A stretch of 63,789 nt of DNA, filler included, from Reclinomonas americana ATCC 50394 (taxonomy: Eukaryota), in assembly GCA_048213135.1 (NCBI GenBank). It is 6 parts of 3 records of this genome, joined end to end, with 100 filler letters (N's around TTAATTAATTAA, not from the genome) between each part and the next. Parts side by side here need not be neighbours in the genome. Positions count along the whole stretch, not along the records: positions 23,351 to 34,214 come from PS015034.1; 5 more parts are not named here. One strand, written 5' to 3'. Of this stretch, positions 25,515 to 34,258 are shown in pieces (positions within the stretch are counted from its first letter, which is position 1; every line of letters starts with the position of its first letter). The translations under genes were made by a program, and so were the position numbers. The notes beneath the pieces are model-generated. The model did no database searches. It saw only the letters and a list, made by a program, of their open reading frames with translations, and was not told the DNA's origin.

Positions 25515-28500
25515 ATGCCGCTGCTCACCGACAAGGAGTTGTGTGTGCCGCTGTGCTTCTGCCAGCACACGCCGTTCTCACTTCTCTCTCACTCTCTCAC
25601 TCTCGCAGATCCAACTTTTGGCGCGTCACCAAGGCACAACGCCGCGTGGCCACTGCCGCTCTGCGCTCTTTGGTGCAGCGCTTGCTTCCGCTATTCGTTC
25701 TCCAGTGCCACCGAGACACGGGTCTGTGGCTGATGCAGGAGTGGAAGAAGGCCGAAAACAAGCGTGACAAACGGTGAGTCTGCTCCTGACTCTTTCTCAG
25801 TGTGCGCTGCCGACTCGCTCACTCGCGCACACCGTTTGTGTGCTCTCTGTGCACAGTTGCCATGTCAACGATGTGTTTTTCGTGAGGATTCCTGGCAATC
25901 ATCACCACCCTCTATTCGACGCGTGGCATGATGCCCTAATGGCGGGCACTGCGGAGCCTTCGTGTGACGAGTTGGACACGACTGCGCTGGCGGCATTGGC
26001 TCTCGGTGCACACTACGAGACGCCGGCGGGCGCAGTGGTTCGCATGCTCGACGATCCCACGCAGGTGTGTGCACATGAAGACGTCCTGCAAATTCCTGCG
26101 CTTTCCCCACTGCGGATCCTGGAGAGAGTGAACTCACTTTCTCCACTTTTCTTCATGCAGCGCGATGCTGTCGGGTGGCTCCGCAGTGACTTGCGCAATC
26201 CTCTCAGCCACGAGAAGCCAGAGTTGGATCGTGCTGATCTTGTGCGCTTGCTCGGCGACGGCTCCAGCGAAGGCGAGATTGCGGCGAAGCTCCGTCAACT
26301 CGGCTTGCCCGCTGCGGACATTGATTCGTTTGTGGAGCAACTGGATGAGATTCGGCGAGGTGCGTTGGATGTGGTTTTCATTTACAATGCTGGCTTTCTG
26401 ACGTTGCTGTTGCTTTCTTTTCTACAGTTGCGGCGCCTCTGGGCCCGAAAGTTCAAGTCACAACGGTTGGTTCTATGAACCGATTTGTGTTTCCTCGTCG
26501 CCGTGACCTGGCCGCCAGCATCGCCGTGCACATGTTGGGTGCTGAAGCCAGTGAGTTGCAATTTGTTGCTTGGGTGTTGGCTGCAGGATTCCACTTGCTC
26601 ACTTGTGTGATGAATGTGTGTGCGTCTCTCCCCCTCCCCCTCTCTCCCTCTGTGTGTAGACGAGCGACCTGCCATTGTGGTGCTCACTGGAGAGGCCGGC
26701 AGTGGCAAGACCATGCTCGCCGAACTGATCGTCAGTGAGATGGAGAGTGCCGGCATGTGGCGTGGTTCGGCGCTGTACGCAGACATGCGCGGACACATTG
26801 CAGATCGCCAGCTGTACACGCCGGTGCGTTTCGTTGATCACCAGCTCTCCATTCATACGAGACTCATGTAGTGTTTCGTTGAATATCAGGCCAGTGAGAT
26901 GTTGGCCGGCTGCTTGTGTGACTTCGCAGACGAGCTACAAGCGAGTTTCCCTGCTGACGCGGCACAGCTGCACGCTGACATTGAAGCGTGGGCGCGCACA
27001 TCCGATGTTGATAACATGCGCATTCGGCTGAGTGAACTGATGCGAGACAGCCGCGGTGTTTTGCTGCTGGACAACGTAGGCTCATTGGAGCAGGTCAGCG
27101 CAGCTCTCCTGGCTCCTCATGTACGAGGAAGGCGGCGAGGTGTGTATCACGTGTCGAGTCTTGCCGCATTGAGGGTATTGCTTTTCCCAAAACGCTTTCC
27201 TCTCTCACAGACCTATCGGCTGTCGCCCCATTCGTCATCATCACTTCGCGGTTCGCGGTGGTAGCGGATGACGTGCGACATGCATTCTCGTCTGCATGTG
27301 TGTTGTGTGAGGAAGTGGGCGACGTGGACACAGCTGATATTGTCGAACTGGTTGACAGTCGCCTCTCGCATGCGCCTCCGGAGGTGCGAGTGAGAGTGGC
27401 GGACATGCTGTCAGTGAAGCCACAGGCTTTTCGAGCATCGCTGTGTTTGAGGTGCGGTCTTCGCGTATGGTGCATGCAGTCATTATCGAAGTGCATTCGC
27501 TGAATGTCAATTGTACAGCGAATTGATCCGATGCAACGTGGAGTTGCTAATGGGCGATGAACTCGTCCGGCTGCTGGACGAGAAGAATCGTTTGGCGCTC
27601 GGCGATTTGATGCAGTCCAACTTTGCTGCCTGTTCGACTCGGATGCGGCAAGTGCTGCTGCTGATTGCTGCACTGCAAGAGATGCGCATATCGCCAACGA
27701 CAAGACTGGTCGCCACGCTGCTGTCGGTGTATAATGTGCCTGACGTCTGTGGTGTGCCGCTTACGGAAGCCGATTGTGAAGCAGGCCTTGCGCGGCTTGT
27801 CGAGCGGTTACTACGGGCTGTTCTCAAGAATCAAGAGTTGCGGGACGCACGATATCAGTCTCCGCCACTCTCTGCAGAGGCGATTCTGCAGCTGCGGCGC
27901 GAGTTGGAGGTGCTGATTCCAGTGGATGCTCCACGTGACGGTGTTCGCGAAGACTTGGATGCACTGTGTAGGTCGGGCATTGTCAGTATTACTGTGCACT
28001 GCTCGGATAACGAACTGCTGCAATTGTTGTGTCGTCGAGATGCAGCTGGTGTTCGCGATGTGTGCCACTACCGTGTGCACGATCTTGTGGTTGAGTGGCT
28101 TTATCAGGGTCGACTTTGTGACGGAGATATCAACGGGCTGTCGGTGTGCCGACGAGGCTTGACGATTGTCGCGTATGGTGCGCTTGGTTGCACCATCGAC
28201 GACATTTTCAGCACCGAGGTGTTGATTTCGATGTCGCCGATGATGCAACTATTGTGGGCCGAACTCAAGCACAATTTTCTTTCGCTTCCGTGGGATGGGA
28301 CTGGCGCTGTCCATGATGCTTGGTTGCAGTTGTTTGCTGGCGGCTTGGAAGGTCTATGTTACTTGGTGCATGGTCGGCTTTCTACTGTCGAGTTCCCCGT
28401 GTCTTGTGCAGCGGGAGCGATTGCTGCGCTTAATTCAGTGACGACTTGTAGGGTCGAACGACTTGTCACTCGCATCTCCTGCGTGGCGTATCTTTCGTAC

Positions 28501-31500
28501 GCCTCGCGGCGGTATGCAGATGCTGCTGACATCCTCAGCAGTCTTGCCAGAACTGTCGATGAAGGCCGTATTAATATTCACTTTCCACTTCTCCTCGCCC
28601 GCTGCCTTCATGAGTGTGGGCGTGTGATAGAATCTGAGCAACTGTATCGCCTTGTACTGGTGGGGCAGACAGTCGTGTTTGGTGAACGGCATCCATCCAC
28701 GCTCGCCTCGATGAACAGCCTGGCCTCGTGCTTGGGGTCGCGTGGCGATCACGCCGGGGCTGAGCGACTGCTCCGCCGTGTGGTGGAGGTGCAGACCGAG
28801 GTATTGGGCGAACGGCATCCATCCACACTTGCCTCGATAAACAACCTGGCCTCGTGCTTGAATTCGCGTGGTGATCATGTGGAGGCTGTGGGACTGCATC
28901 GCTGTGTGATAGAGGTGCAGACAGAGGTGTTGGGTGAACGGCATCCGTCCACGCTTGACTCGATGAACAACCTGGCCTGGTGCATGCTGTCGCGTGGTGA
29001 TCATGTGGAGGCTGAGCATCTGCATCGCCGTGTGCTGGATGTGCAGACAGAGGTGTTGGGTGAACGACATCCGTCCACGCTCGCCTCGATGAACAACCTG
29101 GCATCGTGCTTGGAGTCGCGTGGTGATCATGTGGAGGCTGAGCGACTGCATCGCTGTGTGCTAGGAGTGCTGACAGAGGTGTTGGGTGAACGGCATCCAT
29201 CCACGCTCGCCTCGATGTGCAACCTGGCCTCGTGCTTGAATTCGCGTGGTGATCACGGGAATGCTGAGCAACTGCATCGCCGTGTGCTGGAGGTGCAGAA
29301 AGAGGTGTTGGGTGAACGGCATCCATCCACGCTCATCACGATGAACAATCTGGCCCTTTGCCTGGAATCGCGTGGTGATCACATGGGAGCTGTGGGACTG
29401 CATCGCCGTGTGGTGGAGATTCAGTCAGAGATGGCGGATGAACGGCATCCATCCACGCTTGCCTCAATGTGCAACTTGGCCTCATCCTTGCAGTCGCTTG
29501 GTGATCACGTCGAGGCTGAGCGACTGCATCGCCGTGTGGTGGAGGTGCGAACAGAGGTGTTGGGTGAACGGCATCCATCGACACTCACCTCGGTAAGCAA
29601 CCTGGCCTCGTGCTTGGGGTCGCGTGGTGATCACGTCGAGGCTGAGCGACTGCATCGCCGTGTGGTGGAGATGCAGACAGAGGTGTTGGGTGAACGGCAT
29701 CCATCCACGCTCACCTCGATGAACAGGCTGGCCTCGTGCTTGGGGTCGCGTGGCGATCACGCCGGGGCTGAGCGCCTGCTCCGCCGTGTAGTGGAGGTGC
29801 AGACCGAGGTATTGGGTGAACGGCATCCGTCCACGCTCGCCTCGATGAACAACCTGGCCTCGTGCTTCAATTCGCGTGGTGGTCATGTGGAGGCTGAACG
29901 ACTGCATCGCCGTGTGCTAGAAGTGCAAACAGAGGTGTTGGGTGAACGGCATCCATCCACACTCGCCTCGATGAATAACCTGGCCTCGTGCCTGGAGTCG
30001 CGTGGTGATCACGTGGAGGCTGAGCGACTGCATTGCCGTGTGGTGGAGGTGCAAACAGAGGTGTTGGGTCAATGGCATCCATCCACACTCGCCTCGATGA
30101 ACAACTTAGCCTTGTGCCTGGGGTCGCGTGGTGATCACGTGGAGGCTGAGCAACTGTATCGACGTGTGCTGGAAGTGCAGACAGACGTGTTGGGTGAACG
30201 GCATCCGTCCACGCTCGCATCAATGTGTGGCCTGGCGGCCTGCTTGCAGTCGCATGGTGATTACGTGGAGGCTGAGCAACTGAATCGCCGTGTGCTTGAG
30301 GTGCAGACAGAGGTGTTGGGTGAACGGCATCCGTCCACGCTCGCATCAATGTGTGGCCTGGCGGCCTGCTTGCAGTCGCATGGTGATTACGTGGAGGCTG
30401 AGCAACTGAATTGCCGTGTGCTTGAGGTGCAGACAGAGGTGTTGGGTGAACGGCATCCATCCACGCTCACCTCCATGAACAACCTGGCCTCGTGCTTGGA
30501 GGCTCGTGGTGATCACGTGAAGGCTGTGGGACTGCATCGCCGTGTGCTGGAGGTGCAGACAGAGGTGTTAGGTGAACGGCATCCATCCACGCTTGCCTCG
30601 ATGAGCAACCTGGCCTCGTCCGTGCAGTCGCGTGGTGAGCACGTGGAGGCTGAGCGACTGTATCGCCGTGTGGTGAAGGTGCAAACAGAGGTGTTGGGTG
30701 AACGGCATCCATCCACGCTCACCTCGATGAACAGCCTGGCCTCGTGCTTGGGGTCGCGTGGTGATCACGTCGAGGCTGAGCGACTGCATCGCCGTGTGGT
30801 GGAGATGCAGGCAGAGGTGTTGGGTGAACGGCATCCATCCACGCTCACCTCGATGGACAGCCTGGCCTCGTGCTTAGGGTCGCGTGGTGATCACATGGAG
30901 GCTGAGCAACTGCATCGCCGTGTGGTGGAGATGCAGGCGGAGGTGTTGGGCGAATGTCATCCATCCACGCTTACTTCCATGAGCAACCTGGCCTCGTACT
31001 TGAAGTTGCGTGGTAATTACGTGGAGGCTGAGCAACTGCATCGCCGTGTGGTGGAGATGCGAACAAAGGTGTTGGGTGAACGACACCCATCCACGCTCTC
31101 CTCCATGTGCCACGTGGCGGCGTGCGTACAGTCGTATGGTGATCACGTCGAGGCTGAGCGGCTGCATCGCCATGTACTGGAGGTTCAGACAGAGGTGTTG
31201 GGTGAACGGCATCCATCCACGCTCGACTCGATGAACAGCTTGGCTTCGTGCTTGGAGTCGCGTGGTGATTACGTCGAGGCTGAGCAACTGCATCGCCGTG
31301 TGCTGGAGGTGCAGACAGAGGTGTTGGGTGAACGGCATCCGTCCACGCTCGCATCAATGTGTGGGCTGGCTTCAAGCCTAAAGTCGCCTGGTGGTCATGT
31401 GGAGGCCGAGCGAGTGCTCTGCCGTGTGGTTGAGGTGCAGTCGGAGGTGTTGGGTGAACGGCATCCATCCACGCTTGCCTCGATGAACAACCTTGCCTCG

Positions 31501-32334
31501 TGCTTGGGGTCGCGTGGTGATCACGTGGAGGCTGAGCAACTGTATCGACGTGTGCTGGAGGTGCAGACAGAGGTGTTGGGTGAACGGCATCCATCAACGC
31601 TCGCCTCGATGAACAACCTGGCCTCGTGCTTGGGGTCGCGTGGTGATCACGTCGAGGCTGAGCGACTACATCGCCGTGCGGTGGAGATGCAGACAGAGGT
31701 GTTTGGTGAACGGCATCCATCCACGCTCGCCTCGATGAACAACCTGGCCTCGTGCTTGGGTTCGCGTGGTGATCACGTAGAAGCTGAACGAATGCTTCAC
31801 CGTGTGGTGGAGGTGCAGACAGAGGTATTGGGTGAGCGGCATCCATCCACGCTCAACTCGATGAACAATCTGGCCTCGTGCTTGGGGTCGCGTGGTGATC
31901 ACGTGGAGGCCGAGCGAATGCTCCGCCGTGTGGTGGAGATGCAGACAGAGGTGTTTGGTGAACGGCATCCATCCACGCTCGCCTCGATGAACAACCTGGC
32001 CCAATGCCTCATTGAAATGCGGCGATTTAAGGTCGCAAAACACCTGCTGAAACAAGTCGTTCGCTTGCGGACTAAGGTTCTCGGTCCGCAGCATGCGGAC
32101 ACTCTCAGGTCTCGAGTGCAGCTGGTGGCGATGAGCGCTGACCCGAGTGATGCTGCATCTGAACTTTCTCGCCTGCTTCCTCACATGAGAGACTCTTTGG
32201 AAGACGATCACCCACTTGTGTCGGAAACAATTGATTTGCATATCCGATTTGTGAGACAACAGCGGCAACAACAACAACAACAACAACAACAGCAGCAGCA
32301 GCAGCGTAAGGGTTCACGCAGTCCACGAAAGTAA
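25515..32334 (+). CDS. NLR-like protein: DZIP3-like HEPN domain, STAND (NB-ARC-like) NTPase and 42-aa TPR array
   Basis: Exons 25515-25540, 25609-25773, 25857-26064, 26161-26359, further short exons, then a terminal exon 27519-32334. HEPN RNPLSH (26194-26211); Walker A GEAGSGKT (26689-26712); Walker B VLLLDNV; sensor VIITSR; MHD-equivalent YRVHDLV; GERHPSTL repeats. Confidence 0.88.
28681..32082 (+). repeat. Coding tandem repeat: 27 x 126 bp (TPR_10/TPR_12, kinesin-light-chain-like TPR)
   Basis: GGTGAACGGCATCC-type starts at exact 126-bp intervals (28681, 28807, ... 29941, ... 31201, ... 31957); degenerate 28th start GPQHADTL at 32083. Confidence 0.97.
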
Positions 32335-32456
32335 AATCCTGTTCAACGTCGGCAATGAACCATACACNNNNNNNNNNNNNNNNNNNNAGCAATAAGCATC
32401 TACCGCTGATACTCAACAACTCTCGTGAGCGCAATGCGCAATAACACAATGGATCT

Positions 32457-32502
32457 ACTTGGTCATCAAGACAGCTGTTGCTTGTTTGTTGGTGAATGAA
32501 TT
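32457..32502 (+). repeat. 46-bp dispersed repeat, copy 1
   Basis: ACTTGGTCATCAAGACAGCTGTTGCTTGTTTGTTGGTGAATGAATT, identical to 61174-61219. Confidence 0.9.
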
Positions 32503-32771
32503 TGTTGTTTTTTGTTGTTGTCTCCAGTTGCTGCTTTTGGTCGCAAATATATACTTCGATATCTTGCGCACGCGCGACCAACCTGCTCGGAAAATCATGC
32601 GAGTACGCTGCTCTCCTCCCTCATGCGTACACACACATACAATCACACAATCAGTCCCTTACTCACTCCGCTGGCATCACTAGCATACACTCTCCCAATC
32701 AAGACGAAACTAAGATACGGCAAAGCACAATTTTTCCGTCTGCGCGTGAGTGAGCGCGCACAAGGCGAATC

Positions 32772-34033
<1,262 letters not shown>

Positions 34034-34133
34034 GTTTGTGTTGGTTTGCAGGAGTGAGCGATCGGAGAAATGCTGTTTTTTTCTGCATCTTTTCCCGTCG
34101 GCTCGAGAGACAGAGCTCGCAGTTGTCTCGCCT

Positions 34134-34173
<40 letters not shown>

Positions 34174-34258
34174 TCTTACTTACGTTACGTTACGTTACGT
34201 TACGTTACGTTACGNNNNNNNNNNNNNNNNNNNNNNNNNNNNNNNNNNNNNNNNNNNN

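Follow-up and report, generated by a model that had tools for sequence, protein, structure and literature searches.

Whether a protist can hold in one gene all of the parts of an NLR-like immune receptor, and what kind of effector such a receptor would carry at its N-terminus, is the question raised by a locus at positions 25515-32334 (+) of a stretch of DNA from Reclinomonas americana ATCC 50394 (assembly GCA_048213135.1). The whole stretch that was analysed, hereafter the window, comprises 63,789 nucleotides (nt) including filler, of which positions 23,351-34,214 come from PS015034.1. The original prediction for this locus described a tripartite protein with a DZIP3-like HEPN ribonuclease (RNase) head, a STAND nucleoside triphosphatase (NTPase) and an array of 27 tetratricopeptide repeats (TPRs). 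Our reconstruction shows one intact nine-exon gene that is predicted to encode a 2,063-residue NLR-like protein, and the tripartite layout itself (N-terminal head, P-loop STAND-type NTPase, TPR array) is supported within this single eukaryotic gene. We consider it probable that the product is an NLR-like receptor composed of an orphan helical head, a divergent NB-ARC/NACHT-like STAND NTPase and a 27-unit TPR array; the nature of the head is the part of the proposal on which our data bear least kindly.

A stop-to-stop open reading frame (ORF) table shows one 1,627-codon frame at 27451-32334 (+), preceded by short open frames of other phases. The exon chain was built by reading positions 25300-27700 and then joining the exons by coordinate in a script, and is therefore a prediction from sequence. 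In the resulting model (25515-32334, +) the nine exons join into 6,192 nt, equal to 2,063 codons plus a TAA stop, with no internal stops, and a stop codon lies in frame 14 codons 5' of the ATG. All eight introns are of the GT-AG type and measure 66-109 nt; each of the donors starts with GTG, and the acceptors (seven CAG, one TAG) are preceded by pyrimidine-rich tracts. Codon log-odds trained on exon 9 rank the model frame as the best of three in all eight small exons, and the order of GC content over the first, third and second codon positions (GC1>GC3>GC2) is the same in every small exon as in exon 9.

The head is encoded by exons 1-4, all on the plus strand, as are the remaining exons. Exon 1 (25515-25540) provides the ATG and 8 2/3 codons up to the donor GAGTT/GTGTGT; exon 2 (25609-25773), which begins ...SNFWRV and scores -1.1 in the model frame against -34.5 and -9.5 in the other two, holds the first helices; exon 3 (25857-26064) covers the middle of the head, with DTTAL at residue 104; and exon 4 (26161-26359) contains RNPLSH (26194-26211, residues 145-150) followed by three more predicted helices. 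Exon 5 (26428-26550) encodes a linker and the helix that precedes the P-loop strand, and has an in-frame ATG at ~26475. The NTPase motifs then follow as Walker A GEAGSGKT (26689-26712, residue 251) in exon 6 (26660-26823), Walker B VLLLDNV (27058-27078, with LLLDNV at residue 353) in exon 7 (26890-27139), and the sensor-1-like VIITSR (27234-27251, with IITSR at residue 388) together with a GLPL-like KPQAF in exon 8 (27211-27451). Exon 9 (27519-32334) encodes a helical, putatively winged-helix-like region, the MHD-like YRVHDLV (28069-28089, residue 643), the TPR array and a C-terminal tail that ends at the stop codon. Joining exons 1-4 reproduces exactly the peptide that the original prediction had derived from four small 5' exons, and the motifs it had quoted (RNPLSH, GEAGSGKT, VLLLDNV, VIITSR and YRVHDLV) are all present in the spliced frame. 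Its exon layout was right as to those four exons but not as to the NTPase, which it had placed with the large exon and which is actually split over the small exons 5-8. We also weighed two other sets of junctions and discarded both. One pairs a donor at 27094, which is not GTG, with an acceptor at 27173, and its signals are the weaker ones; the other, with an acceptor at 27480, would produce a 28-nt intron or else require a poor GTCAGT donor.

The Walker A sequence GEAGSGKT conforms to GxxxxGK[ST] and is the sole genuine P-loop context among the three matches to this motif in the window. Pfam, run on exon pieces of an NTPase domain that is split by three introns, placed exon 6 alone below the cut-offs for both NACHT (23.8 bits; cut-off 26.7) and NB-ARC (16.6 bits; cut-off 23.5), and hmmsearch with home-made NB-ARC/NACHT profiles recovered nothing beyond the P-loop; both results count against assigning the module to the STAND class. 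Further sub-threshold P-loop matches were given on single exons by AAA_22, nSTAND3, AAA_16 and NPHP3_N (E 3e-4), PADLOC returned P-loop-level matches on exon 6 only (none on the seven other pieces, and no defence-system match beyond the P-loop), and a phmmer search of spliced residues 1-790 against 121 retrieved proteins gave no significant match. The home-made profiles were derived from the listed TPR relatives, 32 of them labelled PF00931 and six labelled PF05729 without PF00931, a selection that is possibly incomplete; each sequence was trimmed to the stretch between 25 residues N-terminal and 430 residues C-terminal of the P-loop.

Profile-to-profile comparison points to a STAND module more clearly. 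When spliced residues 215-700 were aligned by hhalign with the 32-protein NB-ARC alignment, a probability of 84.5 and a score of 48.9 were obtained over residues 349-452, in an alignment that crosses the exon 7/8 junction and pairs LLLDNV with the hhhhDNaDD Walker B, VIITSR with ILfTTR and KPQAF with lPLAI. The same residues gave a probability of 89.4 and a score of 53.6 with the six-protein NACHT alignment, over residues 231-359; this alignment begins in exon 5, at the helix that precedes the P-loop, and reaches Walker B after crossing junctions 5/6 and 6/7. Shuffled queries (30 for each alignment) reached at most 27.5 (NB-ARC) and 26.2 (NACHT). Walker B, the sensor-1 arginine and the GLPL-like motif thus occur in canonical order and spacing in the alignment to NB-ARC, and the Walker B aspartate stands ~35 residues ahead of the sensor-1 arginine in the spliced frame. 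In the genome the frame of Walker B is not that of VIITSR, and intron 7 alone brings the two into one frame; this, together with the hhalign alignments that span junctions 5/6, 6/7 and 7/8, provides independent support for exons 5-9. The MHD-like YRVHDLV lies 392 residues past the P-loop, in a region that AlphaFold models with a predicted local distance difference test (pLDDT) of 41, and Pfam found no match in the region after the nucleotide-binding domain. At the level of profile alignment, as distinct from that of Pfam cut-offs, the module is shown to be a divergent, putative NB-ARC/NACHT-like STAND NTPase with an NB-ARC-like motif set.

The identity of the array as TPRs is certain on its sequence. 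It occupies 28654-32055 (+) and consists of 27 regular repeats of the TPR_10/TPR_12 type, with one degenerate repeat on each side; the 27 units follow each other at an exact spacing of 42 residues, in agreement with the number originally proposed. Pfam scores are far over the cut-offs for TPR_12 (1,015 bits, 25 stretches) and TPR_10 (809 bits, E 4e-252, 28 stretches). At the DNA level the unit measures 126 bp and is present in 26.7 copies with 84% matches (Tandem Repeats Finder). Two units are on average 82% identical in DNA and 74-75% in protein, and the proportion of non-synonymous differences (pN, 0.13) is overall lower than that of synonymous differences (pS, 0.30), with pN exceeding pS at unit positions 18, 28, 38, 4 and 30. 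Variation is greatest at positions 18, 21, 22, 25 and 28, whose i, i+3/4, i+7 spacing places them on one face of helix A. Positions 38 and 40 are likewise rich in amino-acid variation, and repeat 13 has 97% DNA identity to repeat 14. A search of a 5.8-billion-cluster collection gave 4,752 matches among 8,000 scored candidates, the best 120 of which were listed; among the matches listed, the closest TPR arrays belong to fungal NLR-type proteins and to bacterial STAND, CHAT and kinase-TPR proteins, at 29-52% identity. A homologous-protein search with exon 9 minus its repeats gave one match, via TPR-like sequence only. Open frames on the minus strand run across the array within 28435-32313 (up to 293 codons, e.g. 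30971-31852) and recur with the 126-bp unit; these look like a by-product of repeat composition rather than genes. A (CAA)n tract at 32266-32291 (+) gives the protein a polyglutamine run close to its C-terminus, a few residues ahead of the stop.

What, then, is the head? It spans residues 1 to ~215, is predicted to be mostly helical and lies N-terminal to the STAND-TPR body, which is the effector position in STAND receptors. A very divergent HEPN RNase that would use R145, N146 and H150 is the leading identity for it, tentative and unproven, and membership of the HEPN_DZIP3 family (PF18738; 144 positions, cut-off 27 bits) is a still more doubtful proposition. As features of that family the original prediction had also cited an N-terminal helix and a DxTxL-type motif. 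The case for HEPN begins with RNPLSH, which has the Rx4-6H form with a polar residue (N/D/H) after the arginine and, as an Rx4H with N in that position, fits the description of the superfamily (available sections of PMC3710099); this is the commonest form of the motif in DZIP3-like HEPN domains, being found in 131 of 202 oyster members (as given in the part of PMC9646362 at hand). The ESM Atlas, queried with exon 4 alone, returned two Csm6 HEPN clusters (0.78 and 0.76), so that HEPN families make up two of the five clusters listed with this exon as query. RNPLSH follows a helix and precedes a loop in an untrustworthy AlphaFold2 model made without alignments (pLDDT 46) from a read-through of exon 3, intron 3 and exon 4, which lacks exon 2. 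The combination of HEPN with STAND and TPR in one protein is also a known one (PMC3710099, Table 1, in the sections available).

Against this stand most of the searches. None of the Pfam HEPN models, PF18738 included, matched exons 2, 3 or 4 or the read-through at E<=10, and a typical PF18738 member should have given at least a weak match on exon 4. A phmmer search of the read-through against 1.84 billion representative proteins gave nothing at E<=0.001, and the PDB gave no match to it and, to exon 4, two weak and irrelevant ones. With a HEPN_Swt1 profile for which we took 27 loci out of 26 genomes among 401, hhalign put the RNPLSH of the spliced head on the RNxxAH column, but at a probability of 1.7 and a score of 17.1, the best of 30 shuffles having scored 17.4. 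Atlas scores under 0.8 are reached by shuffled proteins a third of the time, and both AlphaFold models, which were made from contiguous pieces (pLDDT 46 and 41), are unusable. The motif itself is cheap: when the head was shuffled 20,000 times, Rx4-6H arose in 87% of cases and R[NDH]x3-5H in 24%, and a second R[D]x3H occurs in the head at residue 61. The claim that the head is a DZIP3-like HEPN RNase has therefore fared poorly, there being no Pfam HEPN match, no relatives and a Swt1-profile score no better than that of shuffles; as to the catalytic motif, its presence at R145 and H150 was correctly read, but its generic form comes up in about a quarter of shuffled heads and is weak evidence.

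Other searches for relatives of the head and of the gene were likewise empty. PF18738 did not exceed its cut-off in any of 401 genomes sampled from a single bacterial phylum or in any of 14 control genomes, no PF18738 label was found among the best 120 TPR relatives of 4,752 matches, and the Atlas gave nothing usable with the read-through as query. No paralogue was found by tblastn of the gene model against the window, and two metagenome scans contained no related loci. The acidic Ex3[KR] that typically lies in helix 2 as a second acidic residue in many, though not all, HEPN families (sections available of PMC3710099) was not seen ahead of RNPLSH on reading the spliced head. The only Pfam rows for the head pieces, Bfc, RecX_HTH1 (E 0.012) and LRV, are far below cut-offs.

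The same NLR-like receptor may bear a head that is not HEPN at all, i.e. an undescribed helical effector or adaptor with a signalling, membrane-targeting or oligomerisation role, in which RNPLSH arose by chance; we put the chances of this not far short of even. It accords with the lack of HEPN support from profile, sequence and structure searches and with the frequency of HEPN-like motifs by chance, and also with the C-terminal half of exon 4 (26266-26358), whose sole sub-threshold similarities in Pfam and the PDB are to three-helix modules (RecX_HTH1, and the NtrC DNA-binding domain at E 0.62). Fungal NLRs, moreover, are described as bearing many different N-terminal domains (PMC4986451, in part). 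The specific form RNxxxH, however, arises in only 1.4% of shuffled heads, and the position of the motif at a helix end, low as the confidence of that model is, the Csm6 clusters and the precedent of HEPN-STAND-TPR proteins all tell in favour of HEPN. A single-gene NLR with a HEPN RNase head that is too divergent for current profiles is a reading that we hold at somewhat less than an even chance.

It could also be that exons 1-4 form a unit separate from the NTPase-TPR protein, or are untranslated, and that the ATG of exon 5 is the real start of the protein. Exons 1-4 were placed by splice signals and coding statistics, as against the alignments that span the later junctions, and this too weighs against joining the head to the receptor; all of the junctions are, in addition, predictions from sequence. 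The frame of exon 4, if left unspliced, stops at a TGA that overlaps the in-frame ATG of exon 5 (~26475-26478) in an ATGA arrangement, which makes a two-ORF reading possible if intron 4 stays in. Intron 4, however, resembles the other seven: it has GTGCGT as donor and CAG as acceptor, its tract is 78% pyrimidine, and no intron is lower in GC (0.43). The read-through tail amounts to a translated polypyrimidine tract. Exons 2-4 have coding-like codon statistics in the model frame, and an N-terminal domain is normal for STAND receptors. We thus consider two separate units improbable and retain the spliced head-NTPase-TPR model. Intron 3 (26065-26160) is 96 nt long, stop-free and in frame with exons 3 and 4, and scores as coding-like (1.1 against -18 and -21). 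Because it is open and in frame, its retention is possible and would add 32 residues just before the RNPLSH helix.

Less probable again is that the gene encodes a scaffold or signalling protein with a housekeeping role, akin to nephrocystin-3 or kinesin light chain, which would have no part in immune or non-self sensing. The array matches TPR_NPHP3 over its cut-off (E 1.3e-92), the P-loop exon has the NPHP3_N match noted above, and nephrocystin-3 shares with our protein a P-loop module followed by TPR_12-type repeats. The TPR_NPHP3 score stems, however, from generic repeats of the TPR_12 type, and the NPHP3_N similarity is below its cut-off and confined to the P-loop. The array here is much longer than that of nephrocystin-3 and internally repetitive. 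Its best TPR relatives among the matches listed are of the fungal NLR and bacterial STAND, CHAT and kinase-TPR types; 27 repeats with 82% DNA identity and site-specific amino-acid variation fit a fast-evolving receptor better, and the lack of an orthologue in the databases searched would be unusual for a housekeeping gene.

The least probable alternative, a decaying or mis-assembled copy whose array was collapsed or expanded by short-read assembly and which is non-functional as read, draws on the draft state of the assembly (31 N runs in the window, with 20-N gaps at 25159-25178 and 32368-32387 directly beside the gene) and on the difficulty of assembling a 126-bp repeat of 82% mean identity, but it is opposed by a frame that is unbroken over 6.2 kb, by the exact 42-codon register of every repeat and by a pN among repeats that is below pS. 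The gene lies within a single 7.2-kb contig with no N in 25179-32367; since this is a draft contig between two gaps, the number of repeats could be an assembly estimate.

Taken as an NLR-like receptor, the protein can be compared with several described systems. HEPN-NACHT-TPR proteins are reported from oysters, cnidarians and Capsaspora, and HEPN-STAND-TPR proteins from bacteria (PMC3710099 and PMC9646362, each in part). The DZIP3/hRUL138-like HEPN-NACHT-TPR proteins of animals and Capsaspora have the same order of parts as the Reclinomonas protein and the same Rx4H with N after R; in contrast to these, no exon piece here matches PF18738 and membership is unproven, the best alignment of the NTPase is to NB-ARC columns of fungal type, whose Walker B has DN, and the host is non-animal by gene structure. 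Among bacterial systems, the HEPN-STAND-TPR proteins with a Swt1-like HEPN (Npun_F6454) have a predicted RNase head, a STAND module and TPRs in one polypeptide (Table 1 of PMC3710099, as available), and the Avs-type antiviral STANDs follow the same logic of a sensor, an oligomerising switch and an effector. The present gene differs from them in that it is a spliced eukaryotic gene, that its head has no significant similarity to HEPN_Swt1 and that PADLOC recognises only its P-loop.

The body also resembles fungal NB-ARC-TPR NLRs, with which it has in common the 42-residue TPR unit and, among the matches listed, an identity of 44-49% to many arrays, as well as the hhhhDN Walker B, the TTR/TSR sensor 1 and the PLA-type motif in the hhalign alignment. 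According to the available sections of PMC4986451, most TPR motifs of fungal NLRs are 42 residues long and one fifth are highly conserved internally, and the variable or selected sites in the TPRs of Podospora lie on the concave face; variable sites on one helix face are found here as well. The differences are that the repeats of the Reclinomonas array, at 74-75% protein identity, are under the 85% criterion of that study, that the gene has eight short introns, and that HEPN has no occurrence in the text available of that source. Ectocarpus, a brown alga, and the unicellular Acanthamoeba have non-animal, non-plant NB-ARC-TPR proteins that were proposed as pattern-recognition receptors (PMC4053784, in part); these are likened to our protein by description, and the available part of that source mentions no HEPN head in them. 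No protist HEPN-NB-ARC-TPR protein was found in the literature searched.

By analogy with the STAND receptors of fungi, plants, animals and bacteria, a mechanism can be proposed as likely for the Reclinomonas receptor. The TPR array would bind a ligand, nucleotide exchange in the NTPase would then drive oligomerisation, and oligomerisation would bring the N-terminal heads together and so turn on their activity. Sensing, oligomerisation and any immune role are inferred from this analogy, as was the abortive-infection or allorecognition mechanism that had been suggested for the locus.

The surroundings of the gene suggest no partner for it. Pfam was run on 159 further ORFs of the window, and the neighbours are ordinary eukaryotic genes, none of which is an obvious partner of the receptor gene. 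Head-to-head with it and upstream lies an ORF with a DUSP domain of the ubiquitin-protease type (24051-24446, -), and elsewhere in the window, according to both Pfam and database matches, a protein kinase with a Wee1/Myt1-like C-lobe (18202-18999, -). This kinase is at best 36% identical to database proteins, namely one from Willaertia and one from a Phalansterium transcriptome, ahead of Entosiphon (33%) and Drosophila (29%); the collection would thus appear to contain no close relative of the organism, and its spliceosomal introns and the eukaryotic neighbours of the gene likewise make a protist plausible. In other parts of the window, NHL-repeat ORFs on the minus strand within 40725-48528 (e.g. 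44015-44833, E 6e-10, and 47863-48528) are probably exons of one large gene broken by N runs, and a 641-codon ORF with leucine-rich repeats of the RNI type (61675-63597, +; LRR_6 E 7e-33) has no P-loop motif nearby that we could find. Pfam also recognised a piece of a histone deacetylase, an oxidoreductase with NAD_binding_1 and a RING finger. The contig that holds the receptor gene is flanked by (GA)n and (CA)n microsatellites.

NLR-like STAND receptors have by now been described in animals and plants as well as in fungi and bacteria, but few have come from protists, and in these the effector domains have hardly been studied. The gene described here, whose TPR sensor is long and internally repetitive, is a clean and intact case. 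Its architecture is already known and its value is in that respect incremental whichever identity the head proves to have; it carries an orphan head, which has no detectable relatives among the ~15 billion proteins behind our searches. If the head is an RNase, RNA-degrading NLRs would reach further among eukaryotes, and the head would provide a small toxic domain that lends itself to testing. Should it truly be HEPN, the head would found a new HEPN family, and the HEPN-STAND-TPR design that is shared by animals, Capsaspora and bacteria would either predate animals or have arisen independently in protists. If it is not HEPN, the head of the Reclinomonas receptor would be a wholly undescribed NLR effector domain and, if it is not an RNase, a new effector.

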